30,631 nt of DNA from Armatimonadota bacterium (GTDB lineage: Bacteria; Armatimonadota; Zipacnadia; JAUWAU01). Numbering within the stretch: position 1 is the first letter of the stretch; each line of letters opens with the position of its first letter. A program made the translations under genes and the position numbers. This document shows, piece after piece, positions 1,279-23,664 of this stretch. Under the pieces are notes generated by a model. That model did no database searches. It was not told where the DNA came from and saw nothing but the letters and a program-made list of their open reading frames with translations. Where the stretch lies: contig JASFTE010000001.1 of assembly GCA_050114035.1 (NCBI GenBank), positions 1 to 30,631 of the forward strand. Direction: 5' to 3'.

Positions 1279-1477
1279 GCGACCGGATCGAGGACTGTAG
1301 GACACCTTACATTTGGCCACCTCCTGCGTTCGGTCGTGGCGTTACTAACTGTCGGTAATGGGGCGTAGAAGGTATACGCTGCCATTGTGTGGGCGATGCA
1401 TGGTGGCTGCGGCGCCGACGGGGCCGTGGTCGGCGCCCGGACAAGCTGAGGTCAGACCAGAGAAGGGGGAACGTCAG

Positions 1478-3848: not shown

Positions 3849-4424
3849 CTAGACCGCGTGTCCCCTTTCCCCTCGCCCCTGGCCCCCGCCGGTAAGATGA
3901 GGGAACGCCTCCCGGACGATGGTGGTGGCTATACCCGGGACCGCCTCTTCGATCTCAGGCGACAGATGCTCCCCAAAGCAATACGGATCATGCACCTCCA
4001 CGCCGTATATGGCGACGACGGAGGGCACGTTCATTCCCACGCGCTGGCCGAAGCGCAGGGCCGTGTGGAAATCCATGCCATGCTGCCACGCCAGACGGTG
4101 TGTGCCGGCCTTCATCTCCAGGGGAACACGATGGAGCGTCCCCGGCGGAGCTTCGCCCGTCTGGATGGCGTCGATGACGATCAGCTTGTGGTATCCCTGA
4201 ATGACATCGAGCAGGCGGAGACCACCTGCGCTGGCCTCGTCCACGTCTGCCTCGTGGGCCTCGATGCGGCGGCGCAGCTCCCTGGCGACATGCAGCCCCA
4301 CCGCGTCGTCTGACATGATGGGGCTGCCGAGGCCGAGGATGAGAACGTCCGGACGCTCTCGCCCGGACGGTCCCGCGTGTGCATCCGTCACAGAATTGGT
4401 CTGTGGCTCTGCGTCTGCGGCCAC
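3849..4424 (-). CDS. [NiFe]-hydrogenase maturation endopeptidase (HybD/HycI family)
   Basis: VLILGLGSPIMSDDAVG, LIVIDAI, WQHGMDF supply the D/D/H metal residues. Start uncertain: GTG 4433, 4424 or 4391; the ORF-track start 4535 lies inside mvhA. Confidence 0.9.
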   Translation of the reverse strand: MAADAEPQTNSVTDAHAGPSGRERPDVLILGLGSPIMSDDAVGLHVARELRRRIEAHEADVDEASAGGLRLLDVIQGYHKLIVIDAIQTGEAPPGTLHRVPLEMKAGTHRLAWQHGMDFHTALRFGQRVGMNVPSVVAIYGVEVHDPYCFGEHLSPEIEEAVPGIATTIVREAFPHLTGGGQGRGERGHAV

Positions 4425-4432
4425 CGAGCTCA

Positions 4433-5899
4433 CTATCCTCGTGTCAGCGTCTGCACGACGCGCCCGGCGGTGTCGCGGATCTCGATTTCGAGAGGCATCT
4501 GCCCCGGCAGGGCATGGGTCGCGCAGCCGAAGCACGGGTCGTACGCGCGGAAGGCCATCTCCACCATGTTGAGCAGGCCCTCGCTGACCTCTGTGCCGGG
4601 CACGATGAGGGCCTGGGCGGCCCGCTTGATGGACATGCAGATGGCGCCGTAGTTGTGGCCCGTGCCGACGATGAGGTTGACCTTCTTCGCCATGCCCTCT
4701 TCGTCGGGCACGTAGTGGTGGATGAGCGTGCCGCGTGGCGACTCGACTACGCCCATGCCCTCCCCGGGCGTCTCGGTCGGGATGGCGTGGAACTCCTCGC
4801 TCACGATCTCCTCGTCCTGGATGAGCTCCACCATGCGCTCGGCCGAGTAGAGCATCTCGACGAGCCGCGCCCAGTGCATCGCCAGCGTGGCATGGCAGGG
4901 CTTGCCGCCGACAGTCTCGTACATGCGTTCGTACTCGGCCTGTGCCTGCGGCGTGGCCATGCCGTCGGCCGCGTTCAGGCGCGCCAGGGGGGCCACGCGA
5001 TACAGGCCGCTGTCCTTGCCGTCCTCGAGGCCCTTCCAGCCCACCTGCTTGAGGTATGGGAACTTGAGGTACGACCAGGACTCGACGTGCTCGCCTATGT
5101 GCTCGAGGTAGTCGCTCGCCCCGAACTTGTTGATCTCGTTGCCCTCGGGATCGACTGTTCGGAGCATCCCGTCGTAGAAGTTCACGCAGTTGTTCTCGTC
5201 CACCAGCCCCATATAGTACGTCTGGTGCTGGAACGCGTCGCTCAGGATCAGGTCAACGTACTCCTGGTTCCCAAGCACAACGTCGTTGAAGACCTGGAGG
5301 GAGAGCTTGGCGAACTCCACGGCGCCGTTGGCGATCTCTTGGACTCTCGCCCGCTCTTCGTCATCCAGGCCTTTGCTGACACCTCCAGGGATGGCGGCCA
5401 CCGGGTGAACGGGACGCCCGCCGAGGATCTCGATGACTTCGTAGCAACTGAGCCGGGCATCAATGACCTGCTTGCCCAGCTCGACGCCGACCTTGCCAAT
5501 CAGGCCGAGGATGTTGCGCTCGGCCGGGTCCGCGGTCGGGCCGACGACGAAGTCGGGGCCGGCAAGGATATAGAAGTGGGTGGCATGGTCGCCCACGTAG
5601 AAGGCGTTGTAGAGCAGCTCGCGCAGCTTCTTGGCGGCGCCGGGGGGATCGACCCGGTAGCAGGCGTCCGCGGCCTTGGCGCTGGCCATGTGGTGCGCCT
5701 CCGGGCACACGCCGCAGATGCGCGGCGTAATGCGCGGCAGCTCCTCGATAGGGCGGCCCTCGCAGAATTTCTCGAAGCCGCGGAGCTCCGGGATCTGCAG
5801 ATAGGCGTCGCGCACTCCGCCCTCGTCGTTGAGGAAGATCTGTATCTTCCCATGTCCTTCAAGGCGAGTGATCGGATCAACTACGAGCGTCTGTGCCAT
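4433..5899 (-). CDS. mvhA: [NiFe]-hydrogenase large subunit, MvhA/VhuA type (group 3c)
   Basis: L1 RICGVCPEAH, L2 RAYDPCFGCATH, N-terminal DPITRLEGHG, 26-aa cleavable C-terminal extension; SD GAGGAGG; context mvhD-mvhG-hdr. Confidence 0.95.
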   Translation of the reverse strand: MAQTLVVDPITRLEGHGKIQIFLNDEGGVRDAYLQIPELRGFEKFCEGRPIEELPRITPRICGVCPEAHHMASAKAADACYRVDPPGAAKKLRELLYNAFYVGDHATHFYILAGPDFVVGPTADPAERNILGLIGKVGVELGKQVIDARLSCYEVIEILGGRPVHPVAAIPGGVSKGLDDEERARVQEIANGAVEFAKLSLQVFNDVVLGNQEYVDLILSDAFQHQTYYMGLVDENNCVNFYDGMLRTVDPEGNEINKFGASDYLEHIGEHVESWSYLKFPYLKQVGWKGLEDGKDSGLYRVAPLARLNAADGMATPQAQAEYERMYETVGGKPCHATLAMHWARLVEMLYSAERMVELIQDEEIVSEEFHAIPTETPGEGMGVVESPRGTLIHHYVPDEEGMAKKVNLIVGTGHNYGAICMSIKRAAQALIVPGTEVSEGLLNMVEMAFRAYDPCFGCATHALPGQMPLEIEIRDTAGRVVQTLTRG

Positions 5900-5948
5900 G
5901 CCTCAGAGTCCTCCTCGGTCCGGAAGCGACCGGTAAGTACAGGCCCCG

Positions 5949-6968
5949 CTAGCCCTTCGCTGCCGCCCGCGCCGACTCGGCTGGGAGGGCCGTCTCTTCG
6001 CTGTGAGCGATGGGGCGATATCGCCGGCGAAGCAAGGAGCGGGCCAGGCCAAACCGGTAGAAGGTGCCGCCCGGGTCCTTTATCTGGGCGATGATCTCCT
6101 GAATTGTGTCCTCGTCCTCCGAGTCTATGACCGAGGCGACAGCACTGAGCATCTTTGCGCCTTGGTCCAGCACATTGGCCGGAGGCCCGTAGCAGCCGCG
6201 GCACGGCATGTTGGCCGTGGGGCACTTGGCGCCGCACCCGGCCCGGGTCGCGGGGCCCACGCAGATTACGCCCTGGTCGAGCAGGCACTGCTCGGGATCG
6301 GCCTTGATCTCGTGCGGACGATGGATGGCCGTGAGCTTCTTCTCCTCCCGCTCCCGCTCGCACTCCTCGCAACACGTCTTCTCCAACGCGCCAACGACGG
6401 AGCCTGGAGGCGGGAGCTCGCCGCTCAGGACGGCCGCCAGCACCTCCCAGATGCGGTCCCCCTCGGGCGGGCAGCCGGGGACGTAGTACTCCACCTGGAC
6501 GGTCTGGTCGAGAGTCCTCACCGTGTTGTAGAAGGCGGGTAGCTCCAGCTCGCCGGCGGGGACCTGCGTGCTCGTCTGGGGCACGGTACGCTCCGGGTTG
6601 TCGGTGGATTGACTCTCGTGGTACGCGCGATCGAAGATCTCGTCCCGGTCGTGGAAGTTGGCCAGGCCCGGAATGCCACCGAGATGTGCACACGCGCCAA
6701 AGGCAACCATGACCTTGGACTTGGCGCGCAGGAGATGAGCGATCTCCTCCTGTTCGGATGTGCGGATGCCTCCGTTGAAGAGGCACAGGTCGATGCTGCC
6801 GTCATCCATCGCCTCGACGTGATGGACCTTGAAGTCGAGAGCGACGGGCCAGAAGACGATATCGACTGCGTCGGCCAGATCGAGTACCTTCTGGCCGATC
6901 TGGAGGACAGCGATCTCGCACCCGCCACAGCTTGCGGCCCAATAGAGCGCGACCTTTGGCTTGCTCAC
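5949..6968 (-). CDS. mvhG: [NiFe]-hydrogenase small subunit, MvhG type (339 aa)
   Basis: GTG 6968 overlaps the mvhD stop (GTGA). ASCGGCE, FGACA, VPGCPP proximal-cluster motifs plus Cys-rich C-terminus (CCEEC, CLL..G.IC.GPATRAGC...CP...MPCRGC). No Tat signal, so cytoplasmic. Confidence 0.95.
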   Translation of the reverse strand: MSKPKVALYWAASCGGCEIAVLQIGQKVLDLADAVDIVFWPVALDFKVHHVEAMDDGSIDLCLFNGGIRTSEQEEIAHLLRAKSKVMVAFGACAHLGGIPGLANFHDRDEIFDRAYHESQSTDNPERTVPQTSTQVPAGELELPAFYNTVRTLDQTVQVEYYVPGCPPEGDRIWEVLAAVLSGELPPPGSVVGALEKTCCEECEREREEKKLTAIHRPHEIKADPEQCLLDQGVICVGPATRAGCGAKCPTANMPCRGCYGPPANVLDQGAKMLSAVASVIDSEDEDTIQEIIAQIKDPGGTFYRFGLARSLLRRRYRPIAHSEETALPAESARAAAKG

Positions 6969-7414
6969 GGCGCGGGGACCTCCTCTTCCGTGTGGACCTG
7001 CCCGGCCCAGTTCAGCGGCCCGAGGCCGCGGACTGTCTCTGTTATCTCTGACACGACCTGGCCGAACTTCTCGCCCTCGGACGCCGACACCCACTCCAGG
7101 CGGACACGCTCTCTCTCGATGCCGAACTGGTCCAGCAGCGCATGCAGCAGGGGGATGCGCCGCATGACATTGTAGTTGCCGCGCTGATAGTGGCAGTCCC
7201 CCGGGTGGCACCCGCAGATGAGGACACCATCGGCGCCATCGGCCAATGCCTTCAGGACGAAGCTCGGATCCACCCGGCCGCTGCACATCACTCGGATGGG
7301 GATAACGTTCGGCGGGTACTTCCGCCTACTGACGCCTGCCAGGTCAGCTCCCTGGTAGCTGCACCAGCGGCATAGGAACCCGACTATCTGTGGCTCGAAT
7401 GCTTCGTCAGCCAT
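6965..7414 (-). CDS. mvhD: [2Fe-2S] adaptor subunit MvhD
   Basis: GFLCRWCSYQGADLAG, IRVMCSGRVDP, GADGVLICGCHPGDCHY, RVRLEWVSASEG; SD GAGGAG. Confidence 0.96.
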   Translation of the reverse strand: MADEAFEPQIVGFLCRWCSYQGADLAGVSRRKYPPNVIPIRVMCSGRVDPSFVLKALADGADGVLICGCHPGDCHYQRGNYNVMRRIPLLHALLDQFGIERERVRLEWVSASEGEKFGQVVSEITETVRGLGPLNWAGQVHTEEEVPAP

Positions 7415-7455
7415 GTGCGATTCGCTCCTCGACGATCGTCATCGCGCGCCAGGCG

Positions 7456-9219
7456 TCAGGAGACCTGGACCAGCAGCGCGCCCTCCAACTCCGCCAGGAT
7501 CTGCTTGTCGCTGAAGCCCCTCTGGTGTGCGGCGCCCGACGGGCAGGCCGCCACGCACGTGCCGCAGCCTTTGCAGAGTACCTCTTCGATCTTGGATATC
7601 TTCTTTTCGTCGTCGAACTCGATAGCCGTGTACGGACACAGTTCGATACATGTCTTGCAGCCAGCGCAGAGGTCCTCGTCGATCGCGGAGGTGATAGGCT
7701 CGATCGCGACGCGCCCGGCATCGATGAGGCTAAGAGCCTCCGCGGCCGCGGCGGCGCCCTGCGCCACGCTGTCGGGGATGTCCTTCGGGCCCTGGCACGC
7801 GCCGGCGATCATGACCCCGTCCGTGCTCGTGGAGACAGGCGCCAGCTTGGGATGCTGCTCCAGGAAGAAGCCGCCGTCGGCGCAGGAGAGCGAGAAGGTG
7901 TGGGCCACGTCCTCGGAGTCTGCATGTGGCTCGAGGCCGACGGCAAGGACCACCATGTCCACGGGGATGCGTCGGATCTCGCCCAGCAGCGTATCCTCGC
8001 ACTTGATGGTGAGCTTGCCCTCCTCCTCGGGCGTCTCGGCCACCTCGGTGACCTCAGCGCCTTTGCCGCGGACGAAGATGACGTCCTCGCTCAGCACACG
8101 CTCGTAGAACTCCTCGTAGCCCTTGCCAAAGGCACGTACGTCGATGTAGAACTCGTACACGTCCGCATCGTGCAGCTTTTCCCGCACAAGGTGCGCGAAC
8201 TTCATGGCGTACATGCAGCACACGCGTGAGCAGTACGGGTTGTTGTTCTCGTCCCGGCTTCCCACACAGTGGATGATGCCGACGCTCCTCGGGACCGAGC
8301 CGTCCTGCATCACGATGTCTCCGCCCGTGGGCCCGCTGGCGTTGCTCATCATCTCGAACTCGAGGCCGCTGATGACGTTCGGCAGCCGCCCGTAGCCGTA
8401 CTGCGGAGTGCGGGCCGGATCGAATGGCTTGAAGCCAGTGGCCACGACGATCGCCCCCACATCCACTTCCCGCTCCTTCTCCTCGGTCTCGAACGTGATG
8501 GCCTCCGGCTCGCAGACGGTCTCGCAGAATTTGCAGCCCTCTGTCTGGGAGTGGATGCAGCTCTCCGTATCGATGACGGGAACGTTCGGCACAGCCTGGG
8601 CGAAGGGGACATGAATGGCCTTCGGCGGCCCGAGCTGAAGCTCGCTGTGGCGTACCTGGTCTGCTTCCTCGATCTTGATGCACTCGGTCGGGCACACCAG
8701 CGCGCAGGCGGCGCACGTTATGCAGTCCGCTGACGGCTCGCTGAAGGCGGTGGTCACTTCCCGCTCATCGCCGCGGTTGACGAAGTTGACGATGCTCTTG
8801 CCGACGACCTCGTCACAGACCCGCACGCAGAGGCCGCACAGAATACATTCCTCGTCCTCGTCCCCGGCCGGGAACCGCGACTTCTCGATCCCCATGTCGG
8901 TGGCCAGCTCGCGGACCTTCTCCGCCTTCGGCGCCCGGGCCATGAGGAGTTCGACCATCATTTTGCGCGCGTCGAGCACCTCGGGCGTGTCCGTCCGGAC
9001 CACCAGGTCATCCTGGACCGGATAGCTGCAGGAGGCGGCCAGGGACGACGCATCGCCGTCGCCGATCTGCACCAGACACACGCGGCACGCCGAGTATGGC
9101 TCGATGGAAGGGTGGAAGCACAGCGTCGGGATCTCGACGCCGAGCTCCTTGGCGGCGTCCAGGACCGTACTGCCCTCTTCCACCTCGACCTGTCTGTCGT
9201 CGATGGTGAGAGTCACCAT
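7456..9219 (-). CDS. hdrA: Fusion: NuoG/HydA/HoxU-like N-terminal Fe-S module (aa ~1-185) + C-terminal half of heterodisulfide reductase subunit A
   Basis: N-part: VTLTIDD...IPTLC..C..C...C ([2Fe-2S]), CILCGLCVRVC and CITCAACALVCP. C-part: KAIHVPFAQAVPN, VGAIVVATGF, LEFE...SGPTGG, HCVGSRD..YCSRVCCMYAMK, GACQGPKDIPDSVAQG, C-terminal CAGCKTCIELCP / CKGCGTCVAACP. Confidence 0.93.
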   Translation of the reverse strand: MVTLTIDDRQVEVEEGSTVLDAAKELGVEIPTLCFHPSIEPYSACRVCLVQIGDGDASSLAASCSYPVQDDLVVRTDTPEVLDARKMMVELLMARAPKAEKVRELATDMGIEKSRFPAGDEDEECILCGLCVRVCDEVVGKSIVNFVNRGDEREVTTAFSEPSADCITCAACALVCPTECIKIEEADQVRHSELQLGPPKAIHVPFAQAVPNVPVIDTESCIHSQTEGCKFCETVCEPEAITFETEEKEREVDVGAIVVATGFKPFDPARTPQYGYGRLPNVISGLEFEMMSNASGPTGGDIVMQDGSVPRSVGIIHCVGSRDENNNPYCSRVCCMYAMKFAHLVREKLHDADVYEFYIDVRAFGKGYEEFYERVLSEDVIFVRGKGAEVTEVAETPEEEGKLTIKCEDTLLGEIRRIPVDMVVLAVGLEPHADSEDVAHTFSLSCADGGFFLEQHPKLAPVSTSTDGVMIAGACQGPKDIPDSVAQGAAAAAEALSLIDAGRVAIEPITSAIDEDLCAGCKTCIELCPYTAIEFDDEKKISKIEEVLCKGCGTCVAACPSGAAHQRGFSDKQILAELEGALLVQVS

Positions 9220-9232
9220 GGATTGATGCCCC

Positions 9233-11086
9233 CTACTCCACGATCACAGCGTCGTACCGACATACATCGCGGCACACGCCGCACTTGATGCACTTCTCCG
9301 ACTGTATTCGCCGCGGATCCCCGTTCTCGCCGATTATGCACGTCTCGGGGCACTGCCGGTCGCACGCGCCACAGCCGTTGCACTTGTCCACGCTGATGCT
9401 GAAGCTGATGAGCTCTCGGCAGACGCCTGCCGGGCATTTCTTGTCCGCAACATGCGCGTCATACTCGTTCCTGAAGTAGCGAATGGTGCTCAGGACGGGA
9501 TTGGGTGCGGTGCCGCCCAGCGCACACAGCGAGGCGCCCTTGACCTGCTGGCCGATTTCCTCCAGCAGCTCCACGTCCCCCTCGCGTCCCTTGCCGTCGC
9601 ACAGCCGGGTCAGGACCTCAAGCATCTGCTGCGTGCCGTCGCGGCACGCCGTACACTTGCCGCACGACTCCTCGGCAGTGAACTGCAGGAAGTACCGGGC
9701 GACGTCCACCATGCACGTACCCTCGTCCATGACCACCATGCCGCCCGATCCCATCATCGAGCCGACTTCCTGGAGCTGCTCGTAGTCCACCGGGAGATGG
9801 ATCAGATCTGCCGGAATGCACCCGCCCGATGGCCCGCCGGTCTGGACGGCCTTGAACTCCCTGCCGTCCAGGATGCCGCCGCCGATCTCGTAGACGAGCT
9901 CCTTGAGGGTGATGCCCATGGGGACCTCAACCAGGCCGGTGTTGTTGACCTTGCCCACCAGGGAGAAGATCATGGTCCCCTTGCTCTGCTCCGTGCCTAT
10001 CCCCGCGAACCACTCGGCGCCGTTCCGGATGATGTACGGGACGCTGCCCCACGTCTTCACATTGTTGATGACCGTGGGCTGCCCCCAGAGGCCGCTCTGG
10101 GCAGGATAGGGCGGACGCGGCCGTGGCTCGCCGACCGTGCCCTCCACCGAGGCGAGCAGCGCGGACTCCTCCCCGCAGACGAATGCGCCGGCCCCCCGCG
10201 TTACCTTGACGTCGAATGAGAAGCCCGTCCCGAGGATGTTCTCGCCGAGCAGACCGTACTCGCGCGCGCTTTCCAGCGCAGCCTCGATGTGTTTGAGCGC
10301 CAGGGGGTACTCGGTGCGGACATAGATGTGGCCCTCCACCGCGCCGATGGCGTAGCCGCCGATGAGGAGTCCCTCGAGCACGCTGTGGGGATTGCCTTCG
10401 AGGAGGCTTCTGTCCTGGAACGCCCCCGGGTCGCCCTCGTCCGCGTTGCACACAATGTACTTCGGCGTTGCTGCCTGCTCGCGGCAGAGCTGCCACTTCC
10501 GGCCGGTGGGGAAGCCTGCCCCCCCTCGTCCCCGAAGTCCCGACCGGAGGATCTCTTCCACGATCTGCTCCGGACTCATCTCAGACAGGGCCTTGGCCAG
10601 CCCGCTGTAGCCGCCGATCGCGAGGTAGTCCTCCATGCTGGTGGGATCGATGTAGCCGTTCTGCGCGAGCAGAAGCCGACGTTGGCTCTTGTAGAAGGGA
10701 ACGTCGGGCTCCTTGATGATCTTCTCGCCCGTGTTGGGATCCTCGTACAGCAAACGGTCAATGACGTTGCCGGCGAGGACGGTCTCCAAGAGGATTTCGT
10801 CGACGTCCTTCGGGGTCACGCGCTGGTAGAAGATCTCGCTTGGGCGCAGAACCACGAGCGGCCCGCGCTCACAGAAACCATGGCAACCAGTGGCTCGCAG
10901 ATCGACCTTGTCCTGGAGGCCTCGCTCGTCGATTGCCTTGCGGAAGGCCTCGGCCACGTCCACGGCTCCCGAAGCCGTGCAGCCCGTACCGGCACAGACG
11001 GTGACGCAGGGCTTTGACGGATCACGTTGCTTGGCGAGCTCCTCTGCCAGTTGGTTCAGCGCCTCGGCGCTCTGCAATCGCGCCAT
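9233..11086 (-). CDS. nuoF: NuoF/HydB-like NAD(P)H- and FMN-binding subunit, long (HydB-type) architecture
   Basis: N-terminal thioredoxin-like [2Fe-2S] (CAGTGC..CHGFC), GRGGAGFPTG, NADEGDPG, GAGAFVCGEE, GGPSGG, ESCGKCTAC..SLC, AH....CPAGVC, C-terminal 2x[4Fe-4S]; SD AGGAGGGAG. Confidence 0.95.
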   Translation of the reverse strand: MARLQSAEALNQLAEELAKQRDPSKPCVTVCAGTGCTASGAVDVAEAFRKAIDERGLQDKVDLRATGCHGFCERGPLVVLRPSEIFYQRVTPKDVDEILLETVLAGNVIDRLLYEDPNTGEKIIKEPDVPFYKSQRRLLLAQNGYIDPTSMEDYLAIGGYSGLAKALSEMSPEQIVEEILRSGLRGRGGAGFPTGRKWQLCREQAATPKYIVCNADEGDPGAFQDRSLLEGNPHSVLEGLLIGGYAIGAVEGHIYVRTEYPLALKHIEAALESAREYGLLGENILGTGFSFDVKVTRGAGAFVCGEESALLASVEGTVGEPRPRPPYPAQSGLWGQPTVINNVKTWGSVPYIIRNGAEWFAGIGTEQSKGTMIFSLVGKVNNTGLVEVPMGITLKELVYEIGGGILDGREFKAVQTGGPSGGCIPADLIHLPVDYEQLQEVGSMMGSGGMVVMDEGTCMVDVARYFLQFTAEESCGKCTACRDGTQQMLEVLTRLCDGKGREGDVELLEEIGQQVKGASLCALGGTAPNPVLSTIRYFRNEYDAHVADKKCPAGVCRELISFSISVDKCNGCGACDRQCPETCIIGENGDPRRIQSEKCIKCGVCRDVCRYDAVIVE

Positions 11087-11183
11087 TGATGCTCCCTCCT
11101 GTGGGGTCCCCGCTTGCGAGGCTCGAGCCGGTAGCCGGTACTCAGACTGGCCGGTGGCGCCCCTCGCCTCTAAAGGAGCAGCC

Positions 11184-11645
11184 TCACTCCTTGTCGCGAT
11201 ACTGCCTTATCAGTCTTGGCACCCGATTGGGGCGGATTCTGCCGTGGTACTGCGGCCCGACCATGAGAAGCGGTCCGAGGGCGCACGCGCCGAGGCAGTT
11301 GACGGTCTCCACCGTGAAGAGCCCATCCGGCGTGGTCGCCCCGGCATCGATGCCCAGATCCTGCTCCAGCCTCTGCAGCACCCTCGGGGCGCCCCGAGCG
11401 TAGCAGGCCGTGCCCATACACACCTTGATGACGTACTTACCTCGACGCTCGAGGCTGAACTGCTTGTAGAAGGTGGCCGCCCGTACCACTTGGCTGATGG
11501 GCACCGCGAGCTGCTCAGCCGTTGCCTCCAGCGCCTCCCGCGGCAGGTAGTTGTACTCCTCCTGGATGTCCTGCAGAGCCTTGAGAAGAGCGGACTGGTC
11601 GCCCGCGTACTGTTCGAGGATCTCTGTCGCCGCCTCCGACGCCAT
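11184..11645 (-). CDS. nuoE: NuoE/HydC-like [2Fe-2S] subunit
   Basis: LQDIQEEYNYLP, ATFY..FS, VCMGTAC, NCLGACALGP; SD AGGAGG. Confidence 0.95.
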   Translation of the reverse strand: MASEAATEILEQYAGDQSALLKALQDIQEEYNYLPREALEATAEQLAVPISQVVRAATFYKQFSLERRGKYVIKVCMGTACYARGAPRVLQRLEQDLGIDAGATTPDGLFTVETVNCLGACALGPLLMVGPQYHGRIRPNRVPRLIRQYRDKE

Positions 11646-11657
11646 CGTACGGGCCTC

Positions 11658-12485
11658 CTACGCTTTGTTCAGGACGAGGTCGCCCTTGCGCATCGTGCGC
11701 ACGGACGGAACGCGCATGCCGAGACACTGCTCCCAGCACAGGCCACAGCCGGTGCACTTCTCCAGGTCCACTTGGCGCGGCTTCTGTTTCATGTGCACCT
11801 TGAAGTTGCCCACGTAGCCCTCTACTTCTGCAACCTCCGAGTACGTGAGCAGCTCGATGCTCTCGTGCTGCCCTACAGAGACCATCTTCGGCGTCAGGAT
11901 ACAGGCCGCGCAGTCGAGAGTGGGGAAGGTCTTGTCGAACTTGCCCATCTGTCCGCCGATGCTCGGCTCGCGCTCCACCAGGTACACCCGCCGGCCCGAA
12001 TCGGCCATCTTCAGCGCGGCCTCAATGCCGGCGATGCCGGCCCCAACGACCATGGCGTTCGGGTTCACGGTAACTTCCAGCGGCTCCAGCGCCTCGTGGT
12101 GCTGCACGCGGCGAATGGCGGCGGCGAGGATTCGCTTCGCCTTCTCGGTGGCCGCACCGCGGTCCTCAGTCACCCACGATGCGTGCTCCCGGATGTTGGC
12201 CATCTGGAACAGGTACGCGTTCAGGCCCGCCTCCGCGCACGCCCGACGGAACGTCGGCTCGTGCATCAGGGGCGAGCATGATGCCACGACCACCCGGGTG
12301 AGGTTGTGCTCCTTGATGTCGTCTCGTATCAGTACTTGCCCGGGGTCGGAGCACATGTACTGGTAGTCCTGGGTCACGACGACGCCCTCGAACCCCTTGG
12401 CGAACTCTGTCAGTTCGTTCACGTCCACCGTGCCCGCGATGTTCGTTCCACAGTGGCAAATGTAGACACCGATGCGTTCCGCCAA
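11658..12485 (-). CDS. hdrA: N-terminal half of heterodisulfide reductase subunit A (275 aa)
   Basis: TTG start 12485 after SD AGGAGGG. IGVYICHCGTNIAG, YMCSDPG, ASCSP, FAD-binding VVGAGIAG..AA, GGQM..FDKTFPTLDC, then a single CTGCGLCWEQC motif and TAG stop. Confidence 0.93.
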   Translation of the reverse strand: MAERIGVYICHCGTNIAGTVDVNELTEFAKGFEGVVVTQDYQYMCSDPGQVLIRDDIKEHNLTRVVVASCSPLMHEPTFRRACAEAGLNAYLFQMANIREHASWVTEDRGAATEKAKRILAAAIRRVQHHEALEPLEVTVNPNAMVVGAGIAGIEAALKMADSGRRVYLVEREPSIGGQMGKFDKTFPTLDCAACILTPKMVSVGQHESIELLTYSEVAEVEGYVGNFKVHMKQKPRQVDLEKCTGCGLCWEQCLGMRVPSVRTMRKGDLVLNKA

Positions 12486-12531
12486 TTGAATCGCCCTCCT
12501 ACGGGAGCTCGTCCGCGCTTGGGACCCGTCT

Positions 12532-13434
12532 CTAGCCCGCCGCGACCGGCTCCGTAGCCTCCGAAAGCGGCTTGACCTTGGCAAGCATGTCGTCCACGGG
12601 GACTAAGGATGCCTCGAGGCTGACATCCTGCGCCGGCAGGCCCATGGCCATTCCCATGAGCTGCGGGAAGTAGACTATCGGCATCTGGATCTCCCTGCCC
12701 ATACGCTCGCCGATGGCGTCCTGGTAGCCCTCGAGGTTCATGTGGCACAAGGGGCACGCCGTCAGTATGCAGTCGGCGCCCCGGTCCATTGCCAGCTTCA
12801 TCAAGCTCGTGCACAGCTTCACGCTCACGTCCTTCGACGTCTGCATCAACATCCCGCCGCAGCATTTGGCCGTGAGCGGGTAGTCCACCGGAACGGCCCC
12901 GCACATCTCGATCACTGCATCGAGGCCCTTGGGGAACTCATCCTCCAGGAAGGTCGCATACGGCCGCACGAGCTGGCATCCGTGGTACGGCGCGACGCGC
13001 AGCCCGGCGAGATCGACCTTGACCTTGGAGGCGATGGCCCCTTCGGGCAGGTCATTCAGGACGACGTCGAGGAAGTGGCGCACTTCGACGGTGCCCTCGT
13101 ACTTGAGCCCCGCGGCCGCCAGACCCGCGTTGACGCGCTCGCCGATGCGCCGATCGTCCCTCATGTAGTTATTTGTCTTGCTCAACGTCATGTAGCAACC
13201 GTTGCAGCACGTCACTACGTCGCGCTCGGCTGGCTCCGCCAGAGCCAGGTTGCGGGCCGAGACGGCAAAGGACGTTATCTCGGCCATCGACGTGTAGCAC
13301 GTGGCGCCGCAGCAGTTCCAGTCATCGAGGTGGACCAATTCGAGCCCGAGTGCCTTCGACACGGCCTCGGTGGATCTGCCGTACGGCACAGCGCTGGCCT
13401 CGAGAGCGCAGCCAGGATAGAAGGTGTAGGTCAC
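12532..13434 (-). CDS. hdrB: Heterodisulfide reductase subunit B (two CCG domains)
   Basis: FYPGC, WNCCG, CCNGC, YHGCQLVRP, KCCGG, ACPLCHMNL; GTG overlaps the hdrC stop (GTGA). Confidence 0.93.
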   Translation of the reverse strand: MTYTFYPGCALEASAVPYGRSTEAVSKALGLELVHLDDWNCCGATCYTSMAEITSFAVSARNLALAEPAERDVVTCCNGCYMTLSKTNNYMRDDRRIGERVNAGLAAAGLKYEGTVEVRHFLDVVLNDLPEGAIASKVKVDLAGLRVAPYHGCQLVRPYATFLEDEFPKGLDAVIEMCGAVPVDYPLTAKCCGGMLMQTSKDVSVKLCTSLMKLAMDRGADCILTACPLCHMNLEGYQDAIGERMGREIQMPIVYFPQLMGMAMGLPAQDVSLEASLVPVDDMLAKVKPLSEATEPVAAG

Positions 13435-14021
13435 TCAGACCCCTCCTCGGCTTCAACGGCCGCCATGATCTTCTGCAGGTCCTCGACCCCGCGAATGGGC
13501 TTGGCCCCGAGGTCCAGGCGTCCCCGCTGTCGCATCTTCCAGGCGAGCGGGAGCTGCTTGAGGCCCTCAACGAACTTCCCCGTTCGCATCGTGAACCGGA
13601 TCATAAACTTGGTCTCAGGGTTGCGCCCGTATTCCTTCACCGTGTCCACGAAGGCCTCGGTGAGGATCGTCGCTTCCTTGCCCTCGCGCGGCTCAATGCC
13701 GTGCTGGAGCGCCAAGCGCTTGAGCTCGTACATCAAGTCAGTGAACTTGATGCCGGACGGACACCGGGCAGCGCAACTGTAGCAGGACGCGCACATCCAT
13801 ACGGTGTTGCTGCGCAGGATCTTGTCCAGCATGCCCGCACGGAAATACGCGATGATCTGGCGTGGCGTGTAGTCCATCTCGTCGCTCGTGGGGCAGGAGG
13901 CGCTGCATGTGCCGCACTGGATGCACGTCTTCAACTTCTCGCCGTCCGGCATGCGCAGCACGTCCTCGACGAACTGCTCGTTCAGCGTCTTCCCGCTGGA
14001 GCCCGGATGGTTGGCAGCCAT
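13431..14021 (-). CDS. hdrC: Heterodisulfide reductase subunit C (2x[4Fe-4S])
   Basis: CIQCGTCSASCP and WMCASCYSCAARCP; SD GGAGGGA; immediately upstream of hdrB. Confidence 0.93.
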   Translation of the reverse strand: MAANHPGSSGKTLNEQFVEDVLRMPDGEKLKTCIQCGTCSASCPTSDEMDYTPRQIIAYFRAGMLDKILRSNTVWMCASCYSCAARCPSGIKFTDLMYELKRLALQHGIEPREGKEATILTEAFVDTVKEYGRNPETKFMIRFTMRTGKFVEGLKQLPLAWKMRQRGRLDLGAKPIRGVEDLQKIMAAVEAEEGSE

Positions 14022-14193
14022 TGCGCGTCCCTCCGCTTAGCTGGCTGGGCTGTGTGCCCTAATTGCTCTCTGGTACCGACGACCGCGGACGATCGCTCAG
14101 ACGTCGCCGACATCCGCCGTCAGGCGCAAACTGAATTGATTCGGTCTGGAATGCCGGCTTCCGTGGTCGATCTCACGAAGCCCGTGGCCTAAC

Positions 14194-14214
14194 ATCCCCA
14201 TCGTCGATGGGGAT
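14194..14214. promoter_or_regulatory. Perfect 10-1-10 palindrome, candidate operator
   Basis: ATCCCCATCG-T-CGATGGGGAT; a 1-nt centre favours a DNA-binding site over an RNA hairpin. Confidence 0.45.
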
Positions 14215-14388: not shown

Positions 14389-14416
14389 AGTATAGTCGCT
14401 TTGGCCAATTTGTCAA
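14389..14416 (-). promoter_or_regulatory. sigma70-type promoter facing the hdr-nuo-mvh operon
   Basis: -35 TTGACA (14416-14411), 16-nt spacer, -10 TATACT (14394-14389). Confidence 0.75.
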
Positions 14417-14737: not shown

Positions 14738-14781
14738 CCGTTGGGAGCGGCTGCAGGCCGCCGTCTGACGGAGTGCACCAA

Positions 14782-17139
14782 GTGACGGACAGTCGCGCCA
14801 TCATCGAAGTCAACGGCATTGTGCAGGGCGTGGGGTTTCGGCCCTTCGTGCATCAGCGCGTGCGCCTGTACGGCCTCAAAGGCTGGGTGCTGAACTCACG
14901 ACAGGGCGTTCAGATGGAGGTGGAGGGCGCCTCCGAGGACGTCCGCCGATTCGTTGATGATCTGGAGACGCAGCCTCCTGTGCTGGCGGCCATCGAGCGC
15001 GTCCACGTCCAGCACGCCGAGCCGGTGGGCTACGAGGCGTTCGAGATACGACGCAGCGAAGAACGCCCGGCCGATAGTGAGACGGCGGAGGACCGTATCT
15101 GCTTCGTCTCTCCCGATGTGGCCACGTGCGAGGATTGCCTCAGGGAGCTCCTCGATCCAGGCGACCGCCGCCACCGGTACCCGTTCACGAATTGCACCAA
15201 CTGCGGCCCTCGCTTCACCATCGTCGAGGACACTCCGTACGACCGCGACAAGACCACGATGCGCGCTTTCCCCATGTGCGACGACTGCCACGGTGAGTAT
15301 GGGGACATCGAGGATCGACGCTACCACGCGCAGCCGAACGCATGCTGGCGCTGCGGCCCCCAACTGACGCTCGAGCTGCCCGGGTCACCCCCGGCCGAGG
15401 GCGACGCCATCACGGCGACGCAGCGGATCCTGGCAGACGGCGGCATAGTGGCCGTGAAGGGGCTGGGCGGGTTCCACCTGGCGTGTGACGCCGAGAACGC
15501 TGCCGCGGTCCGTCGCCTGCGCGCGCGCAAGCATCGCGAGGAGAAGCCCCTCGCCATCATGTGCGGCGCCGCCGAGGCGGCGGAGCGCATCTGTGATACG
15601 GGCGAATCTGAGCGCCGCCTCCTCACCGATCCGCGGCGGCCCATTGTGCTGCTCCGGAAGCGGCCGGACTGCCCCATCGCCGAGCAGGTGGCGCCCGGCA
15701 ACCGGTACCACGGCGTCATGCTCCCGTACACGCCGCTGCACGCCTTGCTGTTCCAGGACGCGCCATACACGGCCCTCGTGATGACCAGCGGCAACCTGAG
15801 CGAGGAGCCACTGACGCACACCAACGAGGGTGCCCGGCGGGGCCTGCTCCCGATGGCCGATGCGCTGCTGGCGCACAACCGGGACATCCACGCGCGCTGC
15901 GACGACTCCGTGGCGCGTATCGCGGCCGGCGGGCCGCTCGTCATGCGTCGCTCGCGCGGGTACGCGCCCTTTCCGGTCCGCCTCGGCGAGGCGACCCCCA
16001 TGATCCTCGCGTGCGGCGCGGAGCTCAAGAACACCTTCTGCCTGGTGCGCGATGGGTATGCCTTCATCAGCCAGCACATCGGCGACCTGAAGAACGCCAA
16101 GGCGAGCGCGTACTTCGAGGAGGAGATCCAGCACTACCAGGAGTTGTTCCGCTCCGACCCCGAGATCGTGGCCCACGATCTGCACCCGCAGTACCTGTCG
16201 ACGCGGTACGCCCTCGGGCACTGCTGCTCGACGAAGATCGCCGTCCAGCACCACCACGCACACATGGCGAGCTGCATGGCCGAGCATGGCATCAGGGAGC
16301 CGGTAATCGGCGTGAGCTTCGACGGCCTCGGACTGGGCGCCGACGACACGGTGTGGGGTGGGGAGTTCCTCGTCGGCGACCTCGTGCAGTTCCGCCGCGC
16401 CGGGCACTTCGCTACCGTTCCCATGCCGGGCGGCGACGCCGCCACCGAGCAGCCGTGGCGCATGGCGCTGAGCTACCTGCTCGCCGCATTCGGCGACGAT
16501 TACCGCACGCTGCCACTGGCGCTCAACGAGCGCATCGACGACGAGCGGCACGAGGTCGTGGCGCACATGATCGAGCGCCAGTTCAACTCGCCGCTCACCT
16601 CGAGTTGCGGCCGGCTGTTCGATGCCGTTGCGGCGCTTGTGGGCCTGCGCGGCGAGGTGCGCTTCGAGGGCCAGGCGGCGATGGAGCTGGAGATGCACTG
16701 CGCCGACGACGTGTCTGCCGGCTACGACTTCGCCATCGTGGAGCCGGACGAAGGCGCGGATGAGCCACTTCTACTGGACTGGCGGCCCGCGTTCCGCGGC
16801 ATGGTCGATGACCTCGTCTCCGGCATTGACTCGCCGGTGATCGCGGCCAGGTTCCACAACGCGCTCGTCACCGCCACAGCGGCGATGTGTTCGGCCCTCT
16901 CGGAACGAACCGGTCTGCGGAAGGTCACGCTCAGTGGGGGCTGCTTCCAGAATGTCCGATTGCTCGACGGCCTCGTGCCCGCACTCAAGCAGCGAGGCCT
17001 CGATCCCTACACCCAGCACCTGGTGCCGCCCAACGACGGCGGCATCTCGCTTGGGCAGGCAGCCGTGGCCCACGCCCGCACGGCGGCGACCACTGGAAAT
17101 GCGCCCACGTACAAGGAGGAAGTGGGGCGATGTGCTTAG
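14782..17139 (+). CDS. hypF: Carbamoyltransferase HypF
   Basis: Acylphosphatase GIVQGVGFRPFV, Zn fingers CEDC..CTNCGPR..CDDC..CWRCGP, KGLGGFHL, HDLHP, QHHHAH, DGLG.G, LSGGCFQN, PPNDGGISLGQ. Start GTG 14782 (CGGAG 8 nt upstream) preferred over 14773. Confidence 0.97.
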   Translation: MTDSRAIIEVNGIVQGVGFRPFVHQRVRLYGLKGWVLNSRQGVQMEVEGASEDVRRFVDDLETQPPVLAAIERVHVQHAEPVGYEAFEIRRSEERPADSETAEDRICFVSPDVATCEDCLRELLDPGDRRHRYPFTNCTNCGPRFTIVEDTPYDRDKTTMRAFPMCDDCHGEYGDIEDRRYHAQPNACWRCGPQLTLELPGSPPAEGDAITATQRILADGGIVAVKGLGGFHLACDAENAAAVRRLRARKHREEKPLAIMCGAAEAAERICDTGESERRLLTDPRRPIVLLRKRPDCPIAEQVAPGNRYHGVMLPYTPLHALLFQDAPYTALVMTSGNLSEEPLTHTNEGARRGLLPMADALLAHNRDIHARCDDSVARIAAGGPLVMRRSRGYAPFPVRLGEATPMILACGAELKNTFCLVRDGYAFISQHIGDLKNAKASAYFEEEIQHYQELFRSDPEIVAHDLHPQYLSTRYALGHCCSTKIAVQHHHAHMASCMAEHGIREPVIGVSFDGLGLGADDTVWGGEFLVGDLVQFRRAGHFATVPMPGGDAATEQPWRMALSYLLAAFGDDYRTLPLALNERIDDERHEVVAHMIERQFNSPLTSSCGRLFDAVAALVGLRGEVRFEGQAAMELEMHCADDVSAGYDFAIVEPDEGADEPLLLDWRPAFRGMVDDLVSGIDSPVIAARFHNALVTATAAMCSALSERTGLRKVTLSGGCFQNVRLLDGLVPALKQRGLDPYTQHLVPPNDGGISLGQAAVAHARTAATTGNAPTYKEEVGRCA

Positions 17140-17351
17140 GCGTCCCGGCGGAAGTGTTGAGCATCGAGGCGGACGGCCGCGCCGAGGTCTCCATCGGCGG
17201 CGCCGTCCGCGAGGCGCGGGTGGATCTCGTGCCCGACGTCAAGACGGGCGACTACGTTCTCCTGCACGCCGGCTTCGCCATCCAGCGACTCGATGCTGAA
17301 GCGGCCCAGGAGATTCTGGATCTGTTCAGGGAGCTCATCGAGACCCAATGA
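17130..17351 (+). CDS. hypC: Hydrogenase assembly chaperone HypC (73 aa)
   Basis: MCLGVP..., GDYVLLHAGFAI; SD AAGGAGG at 17113-17119; overlaps the hypF end. Confidence 0.96.
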   Translation: MCLGVPAEVLSIEADGRAEVSIGGAVREARVDLVPDVKTGDYVLLHAGFAIQRLDAEAAQEILDLFRELIETQ

Positions 17352-18466
17352 GGTACGGCGAGGCGTTCCGCGACAAAGAGGCGGCCGGCGCCCTCGTGCA
17401 GCGCATCGCGGCGGCGGCGCAGCGGCCCACGCGCCTCATGGAAGTGTGCGGCACGCACACCATGGCGCTCTTCCAGCACGGCATCCGCGGGCTCATGCCC
17501 GAGGCGATCACGCTGCTCTCGGGCCCCGGGTGTCCCGTCTGCGTGACGCCCCGGGCCGAGGTGGACGCGGCCATTGCTCTTGCGCGCATGGAGGACGTGA
17601 CGCTCGCGACCTTCGGGGACATGATGCGCGTGCCGGGCAGCGAGACGTCCCTGACGGACGAGGGAGCCAGCGGCCGGCGCATCGAGGTCGTGTACTCGCC
17701 CACCGACGCGCTCGCCATCGCCCGTCGGGACAGCGACCGGCAGGTCGTCTTCCTTGGCGTCGGCTTCGAGACCACGGCGCCCTCGGTGGCGTGCACCATC
17801 CTCGATGCGGCCCAACACGGAATCGCCAACTTCTCCGTCCTGTGCGTGCACAAGGTCATCCCGCCGGCCCTCCGGGCGCTGCTGAGCGCCGAGGATGTGC
17901 GCGTGGACGGCTTCCTGTGCCCGGGACACGTGAGCACCATCATCGGGTCGCGCCCGTACGAGTTCATCTCGGAGCAGTTCGGCGTGCCGTGCGCCATAGC
18001 GGGCTTCGAGCCCCTTGACATTCTGCACGGCATCCTGCTCCTGGCCGAGATCGTCTCCGCCGGCGAAGCGCGGGTTGAGATCGGGTACACTCGCGCGGTG
18101 CGGCCCGAAGGGAACCCGGCCGCGCTGGAGCACATCGAGCGGGTTTTCGAGCCGGCGGACGCCGAGTGGCGCGGCCTCGGATGGATCGACGACAGCGGCC
18201 TGGCAATCAGACCGGAGCTTGAGGCCCACGATGCAGCGCGGCGGTTCGAGTCTGTCATCGCCGAGACGAAGGCGCGCTCCGCCGCCGTCGCCGACCCGCT
18301 CGGCTGCATCTGCGGCGAGGTGCTGCGGGGCACGCACACGCCGCTGGACTGCCCGCACTTCGGCAAGTCGTGCACGCCGCAGGATCCCGTGGGGCCCTGC
18401 ATGGTATCCTCCGAGGGTACCTGCGCGGCTCACTACCGGTACGGCGACGCCCGTGACGCGGACTGA
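17348..18466 (+). CDS. hypD: Hydrogenase maturation protein HypD
   Basis: MEVCGTHT, GPGCPVCV, GFETT, PGHVS, AGFEP, CICGEVLRG..CPHFG..CTP..PVGPCMVSSEGTC. Confidence 0.97.
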   Translation: MRYGEAFRDKEAAGALVQRIAAAAQRPTRLMEVCGTHTMALFQHGIRGLMPEAITLLSGPGCPVCVTPRAEVDAAIALARMEDVTLATFGDMMRVPGSETSLTDEGASGRRIEVVYSPTDALAIARRDSDRQVVFLGVGFETTAPSVACTILDAAQHGIANFSVLCVHKVIPPALRALLSAEDVRVDGFLCPGHVSTIIGSRPYEFISEQFGVPCAIAGFEPLDILHGILLLAEIVSAGEARVEIGYTRAVRPEGNPAALEHIERVFEPADAEWRGLGWIDDSGLAIRPELEAHDAARRFESVIAETKARSAAVADPLGCICGEVLRGTHTPLDCPHFGKSCTPQDPVGPCMVSSEGTCAAHYRYGDARDAD

Positions 18467-18508
18467 CTGACGGCAATCCCCTGACGCTCCCCAGCGGGGT
18501 GGTCAAGC

Positions 18509-19519
18509 ATGGCCCGAACCATCACCCTCGGACACGGAAGCGGCGGGCAGCTCTCCCGGGAGCTCACCGAGAAGTCCTTCCTCCCGCACCTCCGCAGCCC
18601 GGAGCTCGCCAAGCTCGACGACGCTGCCGCGCTCGCGGTGCCCGAGAGCGACCTCGCGTTGACCACCGACTCCTTCGTGGTCACACCGCTCGTCTTCCCC
18701 GGCAGCGACATCGGTCGCCTCGCCGTGTACGGCACGGTCAACGATCTGGCCATGCTCACCGCGAGGCCGCTGTGCCTCTCGGCCGCCTTCATCGTCGAGG
18801 AGGGCCTCGACCTCGAGATGCTGGAGCAGATCGCCGAGTCCATGGCGGGGGCCGCCCGGCAGGTCGGCGTCCCGATAGTGACGGCCGACACGAAGGTGGT
18901 GGAGAGGGGGAGCGCCGACGGCCTCTTCGTCAACACAACGGGCCTCGGCGCGATCCAGTGTACGCCGCCGCCCTCTGGCGAGCGCGCCCAGGTCGGCGAC
19001 CGGGTCATCCTCAGCGGCAGCGTCGCCGACCATGGCATCGCCGTGCTCATGGCACGAAACCAGTTCCCCTTCCGCGCCGACATCGCCAGCGACTGCGCGC
19101 CGCTATGGAGTCTCGTTGACGCCATGCTGACCACCGGTGCGGACCTGCACGCGCTGCGCGACCCCACTCGCGGCGGCCTGGCCAGTGTCTTGAACGAGAT
19201 CGCCGAGGCCGCACAGGTCGCCATCACGGTGGACGAGGACGCCGTGCCGGTCGCCGATCCCGTACGCGGCGCATGCGAGATGCTCGGGCTGGATCCCTTC
19301 TACGTGGCCAACGAGGGCAAGCTCGTCGCCATCGTCCCTGCCGATGCTGCCCACCACATCGTCGCCGCGATGCACGACCACGATCGCGGCCGCCAGGCCT
19401 GCATCATCGGCGAGGTGACCGGCGAGCATCGCAAGGGCCGTGTCACCCTCGCTACCGGCATCGGCGGCTCGCGGATCCTCGACCTCCTCGTCGGCGAGCA
19501 ACTCCCCCGCATCTGCTGA
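18509..19519 (+). CDS. hypE: Carbamoyl dehydratase HypE
   Basis: ITLGHGSGG, TTDSFVV.PL.FPG.DIG.LAV.GTVNDLAM, RDPTRGG, ANEGK, C-terminal EQLPRIC. Confidence 0.97.
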   Translation: MARTITLGHGSGGQLSRELTEKSFLPHLRSPELAKLDDAAALAVPESDLALTTDSFVVTPLVFPGSDIGRLAVYGTVNDLAMLTARPLCLSAAFIVEEGLDLEMLEQIAESMAGAARQVGVPIVTADTKVVERGSADGLFVNTTGLGAIQCTPPPSGERAQVGDRVILSGSVADHGIAVLMARNQFPFRADIASDCAPLWSLVDAMLTTGADLHALRDPTRGGLASVLNEIAEAAQVAITVDEDAVPVADPVRGACEMLGLDPFYVANEGKLVAIVPADAAHHIVAAMHDHDRGRQACIIGEVTGEHRKGRVTLATGIGGSRILDLLVGEQLPRIC

Positions 19520-21185: not shown

Positions 21186-21351
21186 ACGCCGTGCCGCTTG
21201 AGGAGACGGTGTGGCCGGTCCTGCGCACTGCCGCTGCCCTCAACGCCACATTCCACTGGACGCAGGGCAAGTGCCCCTCCCAGTTCGTACTGTGAGCAGC
21301 TCTGGGCCGCTCCCCGCACGTGCGACTGCGCGGCGTTCGCAGCAGGGCCGC

Positions 21352-23660: not shown

Positions 23661-23664
23661 CCCC

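Follow-up and report, generated by a model that had tools for sequence, protein, structure and literature searches.

An HdrA divided between two genes around a Bfu-type electron-bifurcation cassette in a putative [NiFe]-hydrogenase operon of an Armatimonadota bacterium

The window analysed here is a 30,631-nt stretch of DNA (contig JASFTE010000001.1, positions 1 to 30,631; GenBank assembly GCA_050114035.1) from an Armatimonadota bacterium. Its minus strand carries an operon between approximately positions 3849 and 14416 with the gene order hdrC-hdrB-hdrA(N)-bfuC-bfuB-[bfuA(N)::hdrA(C)]-mvhD-mvhG-mvhA-protease (Table 1). The gene for the heterodisulfide reductase subunit HdrA is thus present as two separate genes, the second of which is fused to part of an inserted Bfu-type module. 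A first-pass annotation, made from the DNA letters without database searches, had described hdrA as split at 7456–12485, with a NuoE-NuoF-NuoG(N) cassette at the break. The five genes it reported were intact and lay on the minus strand at those positions. The split and the cassette were found within this range, but the unit was larger, running from a promoter-like site through hdrC and hdrB to mvhD, mvhG, mvhA and a protease gene.

The window had a G+C content of ~66%. The genes of the operon were tightly packed and translationally coupled. The start codon of hdrA(N) was a TTG at 12485, 8 nt past a GGAGG, and its TAG stop overlapped the GGAGG of the next gene, bfuC (nuoE-like), the ATG of which was also preceded by a GGAGG-type site. 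The GTG start of mvhG overlapped the stop of mvhD (GTGA). All open reading frames (ORFs) were intact and each had its own ribosome-binding site, as had been stated for the genes around the break. A scan of the minus (coding) strand inside the operon found no terminator-like sites. The hydrogenase was assigned to group 3c (Mvh type) of the [NiFe]-hydrogenases on the basis of Pfam matches and gene neighbourhood, the large and small subunit genes adjoining mvhD and the hdr genes in the operon.

Table 1. Features of the operon and its surroundings in the window, in order of transcription of the operon.
Feature	Position (strand)	Basis or remark
Promoter-like site TTGACA-16-TATACT, 11/12	14389..14416 (-)	Upstream of hdrC, in the spacer to the divergent hypF; consensus match only
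hdrC-like, two [4Fe-4S] motifs	13431..14021 (-)	TIGR03290, E 1e-25
hdrB-like, two CCG domains (disulfide-reduction site)	12532..13434 (-)	PF02754; TIGR03288, E 7.5e-60
hdrA N-half: N-terminal Cys domain, FAD GxGxxG, DCxxC, ferredoxin motif 1, 21-aa tail	11658..12485 (-)	Alignment to solved HdrA
bfuC (NuoE/HydC-like), thioredoxin-like [2Fe-2S]	11184..11645 (-)	PF01257, E 1e-48, full length
bfuB (NuoF/HydB-like): N-terminal 2Fe-2S-type domain, FMN/NADH site, NADH_4Fe-4S, C-terminal 2x[4Fe-4S]	9233..11086 (-)	Pfam; alignment to NiFe-HydB 7T2R_B
Fusion gene bfuA(N)::hdrA(C), 587 aa	7456..9219 (-)	Alignments to BfuA N-domains and solved HdrA
BfuA-type N-domain of the fusion gene (aa 1–190): [2Fe-2S] A1 and two [4Fe-4S] A2/A4	8650..9219 (-)	Pfam; alignment to WorA
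HdrA C-half of the fusion gene (aa 195–587): ferredoxin motif 2, rest of TrxR-like FAD domain, C-terminal 2x[4Fe-4S]	7456..8637 (-)	Alignment to solved HdrA
mvhD (FlpD, [2Fe-2S] adaptor)	6965..7414 (-)	PF02662, E 2e-53
mvhG, [NiFe]-hydrogenase small subunit	5949..6968 (-)	PF01058
mvhA, [NiFe]-hydrogenase large subunit	4433..5899 (-)	PF00374
HycI-type hydrogenase maturation protease	3849..4330 (-)	True start uncertain; ORF as listed extends to 4535
hypF-hypC-hypD-hypE maturation genes, divergent	14773..19519 (+)	Neighbour of the operon

The product of hdrA(N) has 275 aa. It contained the N-terminal four-cysteine domain of HdrA, the flavin adenine dinucleotide (FAD)-binding GxGxxG motif (VVGAGIAG), the flavin-side DCxxC motif (FPTLDCAAC) and one CxxCxxCxxxC ferredoxin motif, followed by 21 residues and a TAG stop, which is the content that the first-pass annotation had read from it. 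Residues 4–260 aligned to residues 5–261 of the solved HdrA 5ODC_A and residues 4–254 to 13–264 of 8RVU_a (E ~1e-98). In the fusion protein, residues 195–582 aligned to 8RVU_a 275–653 and residues 165–581 to 5ODC_A 245–649, and the C-terminal 2x[4Fe-4S] domain was present (aa 512–566). The halves matched solved HdrA with high identity, at bit scores of 333 (N-half) and 414 (C-half). The sole overlap between the halves (HdrA 245–261) arose where the ferredoxin motif for cluster A4 of BfuA matched motif 1 of HdrA. Since only this generic motif was shared, the halves are complementary, and the earlier claim to this effect was borne out by their colinearity with both structures. The NCBIfam HdrA2 model was covered by the N-half (1–253), the fusion protein (241–640) and MvhD (644–774). 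Neither chain qualified as a single-polypeptide HdrA with the model NF040770, with which the N-half scored 360 bits and the fusion protein 459 bits against a cut-off of 1100.

According to these alignments, the break falls inside the inserted ferredoxin domain of HdrA, after the first CxxCxxCxxxC. Wagner et al. (2017) reportedly placed this domain at approximately residues 238–312. The N-half carries motif 1, and the fusion protein carries motif 2 (Cx7CxxCxxxC), so the domain is spread across two chains with four cluster cysteines on each polypeptide. In the 2x[4Fe-4S] ferredoxin fold, each cluster is bound by three cysteines of one motif and one of the other. As the two motifs are on separate chains, both [4Fe-4S] clusters should take ligands from both polypeptides. 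The FAD-binding fold is also shared between the two genes. The ADP-binding GxGxxG occurs only in the N-half, and the remainder of the FAD domain is in the C-half; neither half should therefore bind FAD alone. The break point, the eight cysteines of the inserted ferredoxin domain and a short basic tail of the N-half were kept in 15 family members.

Selenocysteine or a frameshift was ruled out as the cause of the split, since the halves are separate genes, with 2.4 kb and other intact genes lying between, and no in-frame TGA occurs. In a relative, an unsplit HdrA match (G007:C2:1243599-1244771) contained one in-frame TGA, possibly encoding selenocysteine as in other HdrAs. Insertion of a mobile element was rejected because neither flanking direct or inverted repeats nor mobile-element genes were found. 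The only repeats were ferredoxin-motif codons, such as 11720–11764 in hdrA(N) versus 9346–9390 in the region for BfuB's C-terminal domain (76% over 45 nt). We speculate that this similarity might have served as microhomology for the original recombination.

The cassette at the break encodes BfuC, BfuB and the N-terminal domain of BfuA. Residues 28–614 of BfuB aligned to NiFe-HydB 7T2R_B 8–594 (E 4e-249), and BfuB aligned nearly as well with HydB, WorB and NfnB. It had the flavin mononucleotide (FMN)/NADH site together with an N-terminal 2Fe-2S-type domain and a C-terminal 2x[4Fe-4S] domain. These extra Fe-S domains separate bifurcating BfuB from NuoF/HoxF (Bfu family survey, PMC9304861). A plain NADH dehydrogenase module (NuoEFG/HoxEFU) was ruled out, as BfuB has both of them. 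BfuC was full length, with its thioredoxin-like [2Fe-2S] domain. Residues 1–187 of the fusion protein aligned to NuoG/HydA-type BfuA N-domains, the best match being WorA (9MQX_A 7–190, E 3e-40), with which its Fer2_4 domain and two ferredoxin motifs were colinear. The NuoG/HydA-like Fe-S module annotated at the start of the fusion gene thus stood as a BfuA N-domain, but the His-ligated cluster of NuoG/HydA (A3) was absent from it: there was no PF10588 match, and the binding segment of ~20 residues was missing in comparison with HydA. In BfuA with clusters A1, A2 and A4, the partner's Fe-S chain attaches at A4, from where electrons pass along A4-A2-A1 to BfuBC (PMC12318220). Judging by domain content, the inserted module is a complete bifurcating-type BfuBC core with a WorA/BamI-type BfuA N-domain.

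Some 19 residues link the last A4 cysteine to the resuming HdrA sequence. The first-pass annotation had proposed that an NAD(P)H/FMN module is covalently wired onto the exit arm for low-potential electrons. That the inserted ferredoxin domain is this exit holds in the solved Hdr complexes and in BamE, where it takes the low-potential electron from the bifurcating FAD, according to the preprint on class II benzoyl-CoA reductase (BCRII; 10.64898/2026.04.10.717634). The topology of the proposal was supported by the break site, the linker and the predicted contacts described below. The covalent wiring has to be restricted to the Fe-S domain of BfuA, as BfuB, with the FMN/NADH site, and BfuC are separate polypeptides, and the module belongs to the Bfu type, in which bifurcation depends on ferredoxin, rather than being a simple NADH dehydrogenase. 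Elsewhere in the same genome, contig C502 carried a second BfuB-type gene (L089:62-1492, minus strand) with a C-terminal 2x[4Fe-4S] domain and 57% identity to the window BfuB. It was divergent from genes on the plus strand (L089 1590-1949 and 2165-4087) that include a distant [NiFe]-hydrogenase large subunit with 26% identity to MvhA. The C502 genes may encode a NiFe-HydABCSL-like enzyme.

When HdrA(N) and the fusion protein were co-folded, the halves docked with an ipSAE of 0.82–0.83 in three runs, versus 0.01 for the best of three controls. In calibration, 55 of 80 solved complexes reached this mark, as did 3 of 110 mismatched pairs. The model predicted ~460 contacts, including those of N-half residues 243–274 with residues 124–186 and 195–263 of the fusion protein. 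In the predicted interface, the N-half contributes its ferredoxin motif and tail, and these meet the A2/A4 domain as well as the inserted ferredoxin domain's second half.

A fragmented metagenome bin such as this one (756 contigs, 83% complete, 5.75% contamination) leaves room for a chimeric join, or for a recent insertion that broke hdrA and left a decaying gene. Both junctions named in the first-pass annotation were, however, bridged by contigs of another assembler: Logan contigs of a wetland metagenome run, probably the source sample of the genome, covered 5938–9752 and 10803–14200 with 0–2 differences and even depth. The architecture also recurred in unrelated assemblies, complete chromosomes among them, at 52–85% protein identity (tblastn, best segment). 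With intact ORFs, each preceded by a ribosome-binding site, and no flanking repeats or mobile-element genes found, an artefact or decaying gene is effectively refuted. Metatranscriptome contigs from a different sample matched mvhA, mvhD, the fusion point (8419–8725), hdrA(N) and the hdrA(N)/hdrB boundary, although DNA carry-over is possible.

The fusion protein had at least 120 full-length homologues (99% coverage, 57–85% identity) among the matches listed from 8000 scored candidates, and these formed at least 120 sequence clusters at 90% identity. A library clustered at 50% identity was uninformative for counting, since the family collapses there to approximately three full-length representatives. 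Source names among the matches listed include Armatimonadota, Aminicenantes and Eisenbacteria. The nearest relative was an Armatimonadota metagenome-assembled genome (MAG) with an identical gene order and a fusion protein of 85% identity. The order hdrC-hdrB-hdrA(N)-...-bfuC-bfuB-fusion-mvhD-mvhG-mvhA, the part of which up to mvhD the first-pass annotation had suggested searching for in other genomes, was kept in 18 genome loci wherever the contig reached. These loci span at least ten named taxonomic groups and come from Armatimonadota, Eiseniibacteriota, Aminicenantia/Acidobacteriota, Verrucomicrobiota, Planctomycetota, Deltaproteobacteria, Zixiibacteriota, KSB1, Sumerlaeota, a 'Deferribacteres' MAG and others. 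Within the phylum, a search with a junction-spanning query detected the fusion, alongside a longer variant, in 4 of the 401 genomes sampled. Three further relatives also had it. Such scattered occurrence fits lateral transfer.

The locus occurred in a compact form, as in the window, and in an extended form with ~4 kb between hdrA(N) and bfuC. The inserts of the extended form (L011:2237-6292 and L002:2481-6277; also L012, L022, L023 and L027) encode a HydS-like [FeFe]-hydrogenase homologue (Fe_hyd_lg_C and FeS), kinase-like HATPase_c proteins, and PHP and DRTGG proteins; an extra small 2Fe-2S protein of 130 aa is encoded before bfuB. None of these extra genes was present in the window. The gene set of the extended form suggests that the cassette came from a HydABC-type operon. 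Other arrangements of related parts were also observed. In an Actinomycetota MAG (L072:1258-7659), a BfuA-type domain was fused to a divergent HdrA C-part without the C-terminal ferredoxin domain, and next came a second, complete HdrA and mvhDGA. The same N-terminal match was shared by representatives of 508–660 aa and of ~1090 aa.

In a phylogeny of the concatenated N and C parts of HdrA (63 loci recruited by similarity to the window protein, LG+C20, no root inferred), one clade (99/98), free of unsplit HdrAs, united all 15 split HdrAs with 10 of the 12 HdrAs that have a 1.5-kb in-frame insert. The insert consists of a GltD/NfnB-like Fer4_20 and Pyr_redox_2 region (~aa 290–690, directly after ferredoxin motif 1; L049, L062 and L075). 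Such an arrangement is that of HdrL, a name given in Desulfobacterium autotrophicum (PMC2702500). The HdrL-type HdrAs (L049:2402-5755, L062:6664-10065 and L075:6697-10077) had 1117–1133 aa. Those of Ignavibacteriota, Calditrichota and a Chloroflexota MAG were organized in hdrCB-hdrA-mvhDGA operons, as were L049 and L062, and the mvh-linked HdrL-type sequences were interleaved with split HdrAs in the tree. The Ignavibacteriota/Calditrichota group was sister to a split Sumerlaeota sequence (100/99), and the Chloroflexota HdrL-type sequence was sister to the Armatimonadota/Aminicenantia split group (100/95). An approximately unbiased (AU) test, applied after the tree had been seen, rejected monophyly of the split form (p = 3.6e-5).

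The rejected monophyly points to an exchange of modules at this HdrA site. In our reading of the tree, the site after motif 1 would have swapped the Bfu cassette and the GltD-like domain more than once. HdrL resembles the window system in that an NAD(P)-linked module is located directly behind ferredoxin motif 1, but it is one polypeptide of ~1120–1135 aa with an in-frame flavin domain, whereas the window has a break, three extra genes and the FMN-based BfuBC. The window HdrA does not itself belong to HdrL, as the Fer4_20 and Pyr_redox_2 insert is absent from both halves. Since both inserts are pyridine-nucleotide modules, the tree provides independent support for coupling of this arm to NAD(P). 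If this holds, the low-potential arm of HdrA would be an evolutionary socket that accepts either a Bfu cassette, with the gene split, or a GltD-like domain, in frame.

All six subunit types of the methanogen MvhAGD-HdrABC complex (PDB 5ODC, 8RVU; group 3c) have counterparts here, with hdr and mvh genes in one operon, and the domains and cofactor motifs of HdrA and the CCG domains of HdrB are retained. In contrast to the methanogen HdrA, the window HdrA consists of two polypeptides, and the DNA between their genes codes for a BfuABC-type NAD(H)/ferredoxin module that is joined to the C-half. The window, from a bacterial host, contained no sign of coenzyme M/coenzyme B chemistry. WorABCSL (PDB 9MQX; PMC12318220, PMC9304861) shares the short BfuA without A3, the full-length BfuB and BfuC and a partner Fe-S chain docking on A4. 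In the window, by comparison, the partner is covalently joined and is itself a flavin-based bifurcating enzyme.

BCRII of Geobacter metallireducens (Bam[(BC)2DEFGHI]2; 'Bam-Bfu' in PMC9304861) combines a HydBC/Bfu-type BamGHI with an HdrA-type BamE, an MvhD-like adaptor and an HdrBC-like subunit, and its BamI has three clusters (I1–I3), like the N-domain of the fusion protein. A HydBC-type and an HdrA-type module have been proven to function together in this complex. No other described enzyme has both module types, a coexistence that its authors call unprecedented (10.64898/2026.04.10.717634). The preprint describes BamI as a separate subunit that feeds the C-terminal ferredoxin domain and BamF (the input, an MvhD homologue), with the inserted ferredoxin domain leading to the tungsten-containing BamBC. 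In the window, by contrast, BfuA is fused at the inserted ferredoxin domain, a [NiFe]-hydrogenase is on the input side, and HdrA is single-copy and split, unlike the duplicated and fused BamE. Membership in the Bam group was rejected on this state of HdrA and because the operon showed no gene of the BamB/BamC type, BamB being a tungsten AOR-type protein. Bam-Bfu is among the entries of the Bfu family survey, which gives no Hdr- or Mvh-linked third reaction in its Table 1, and the accessible supplement text of PMC9304861 has no Hdr/Mvh entry. The searchable full-text literature contained no description of the split HdrA/Bfu layout; Appel et al. 2021 (BBA 1862:148379) lay outside that search, and a prior mention is possible. 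The layout is best described as known modules in a new arrangement, to which the shared clade of HdrL-type and split HdrAs and the rejected split monophyly add a new point.

From the gene structure, motifs, conservation, complementarity and predicted docking, we infer a physical complex, continuity of electron transfer through it, its direction and its substrates. The operon probably encodes one soluble supercomplex, MvhAGD-HdrBC-HdrA(N)/HdrA(C)-BfuABC, in which the low-potential arm of HdrA would be hard-wired to a core reacting with nicotinamide adenine dinucleotide (NAD) and ferredoxin. The conserved gene order, the single promoter-like site, the coupling of the genes and the lack of an internal terminator-like site in our scan were counted in favour of one complex. 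The two HdrA polypeptides would come together again around a single FAD in the usual HdrA fold, the inserted ferredoxin domain being rebuilt from motif 1 of the N-half and motif 2 of the fusion protein. The fused BfuA domain would extend this Fe-S wire via A4-A2-A1 into the BfuBC core with its FMN, NAD(H) site and ferredoxin site. MvhA would oxidise H2 and pass electrons via MvhG and MvhD to the FAD of HdrA, which would bifurcate them: the high-potential electron would reach HdrB via HdrC and reduce a disulfide, and the low-potential electron would enter Bfu instead of free ferredoxin, with Bfu serving both NAD+ and ferredoxin (Fd). The net forward reaction would be 4 H2 + 2 RSSR' + NAD+ + Fd(ox) -> 4 thiols + NADH + Fd(red).

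Several points weigh against this proposal. Every member of the split-HdrA family is known from sequence alone. The co-fold indicates complementarity and is no proof of binding, as both chains are pieces of a fold known to the model. In BCRII, the only solved precedent, the Bfu-type module is on the input side, so the opposite role here is argued from topology alone. The forward direction is argued from thermodynamic reasoning, and it has been proposed that non-methanogen MvhADG-HdrABC runs in reverse, as an H2-evolving confurcation.

The reverse direction would keep the supercomplex but make Bfu the donor: NADH and reduced ferredoxin would confurcate at BfuBC and feed HdrA via the inserted ferredoxin domain, giving an H2-evolving (or disulfide-reducing) sink for fermentative reductant with the hydrogenase on the output side. 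We consider this main rival rather unlikely. Many of the hosts, such as Aminicenantes and Armatimonadota, are predicted fermenters, which would fit such a sink. So would the extended loci, whose HydS-like sensory [FeFe]-hydrogenase, kinase-like ATPases, PHP and DRTGG proteins and small 2Fe-2S protein we take to be the accessory set of fermentative HydABC operons. BamGHI is a confurcating input module in BCRII (10.64898/2026.04.10.717634), and Mvh-Hdr has been proposed as a confurcating, H2-evolving enzyme in a fermenting archaeon. On the other hand, no [FeFe]-hydrogenase or sensory cassette was found in the window or in the genome (83% complete), and feeding the FAD from the low-potential arm needs a simultaneous high-potential donor, namely thiols at HdrB, the oxidation of which has no obvious benefit.

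It is very unlikely that the operon encodes two enzymes, with the fusion protein and BfuBC forming a Type-1 Bfu enzyme that has its own flavin domain for a third substrate, and with HdrA(N), HdrBC and MvhAGD acting elsewhere or being remnants. In some known Bfu enzymes, for example Nfn-Bfu, BfuA is joined to a catalytic flavin domain, and related fusions lack the C-terminal ferredoxin domain or have other lengths (e.g. L072). In the present case, however, the FAD fold is divided across two genes with GxGxxG in the N-half only, the N-half, break point and ferredoxin motif are kept beside the cassette in every complete locus examined, and the predicted docking is strong.

The proposed supercomplex would hold two of the few known ways in which anaerobes make low-potential electrons, flavin-based bifurcation at HdrA and non-canonical bifurcation at BfuBC. 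It would be the second case after BCRII of both in one enzyme, wired differently and far more widespread. A tentative extension, more doubtful than the complex itself, is that the two bifurcating sites act in series (HdrA-FAD, then the FMN and Fe-S clusters of Bfu), splitting the electrons of H2 between a disulfide, NAD+ and ferredoxin in a widespread bacterial complex whose low-potential arm is a socket for exchanged modules. For an energetic estimate, we used potentials of ~−266 mV for H2 at 1 Pa, −140 mV for the disulfide, −280 mV for NAD and −500 mV for ferredoxin. At ~1 Pa H2, the summed reaction (4 H2, 2 disulfides, 1 NAD+, 1 Fd) was estimated to be near equilibrium, and the canonical Mvh-Hdr reaction (2 H2, 1 disulfide, 1 Fd) to be unfavourable. 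As half of the low-potential electrons would go to NAD+, the usable H2 threshold could drop, which, if true, would offer a way to live on trace H2. The supercomplex may also explain the role of group 3c hydrogenases in non-methanogenic bacteria of wetlands, sediments and aquifers. The family offers a natural experiment on the way in which HdrA's low-potential arm is read out, and it includes a ferredoxin domain that would be assembled from two polypeptides. With a five-gene core and no regulatory cassette, the compact form in the window is a convenient expression target.

Outside the operon, the window encoded an Fe/Mn superoxide dismutase (1358–2074, plus strand) with an N-terminal extension of ~42 residues before Sod_Fe_N, adjoining the anaerobe-type hydrogenase operon. 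A peptide/oligopeptide ABC transporter (21198–27917, plus strand) had fused components: its SBP_bac_5 protein has 820 aa, its permease 747 aa and two BPD_transp_1 domains, and its double ATPase 670 aa. The plus-strand ORF at 27883–30630, open at the window end, encodes more than 916 aa; its first 700 residues had no Pfam match, and an FGE-sulfatase domain was present only in its C-terminal part.

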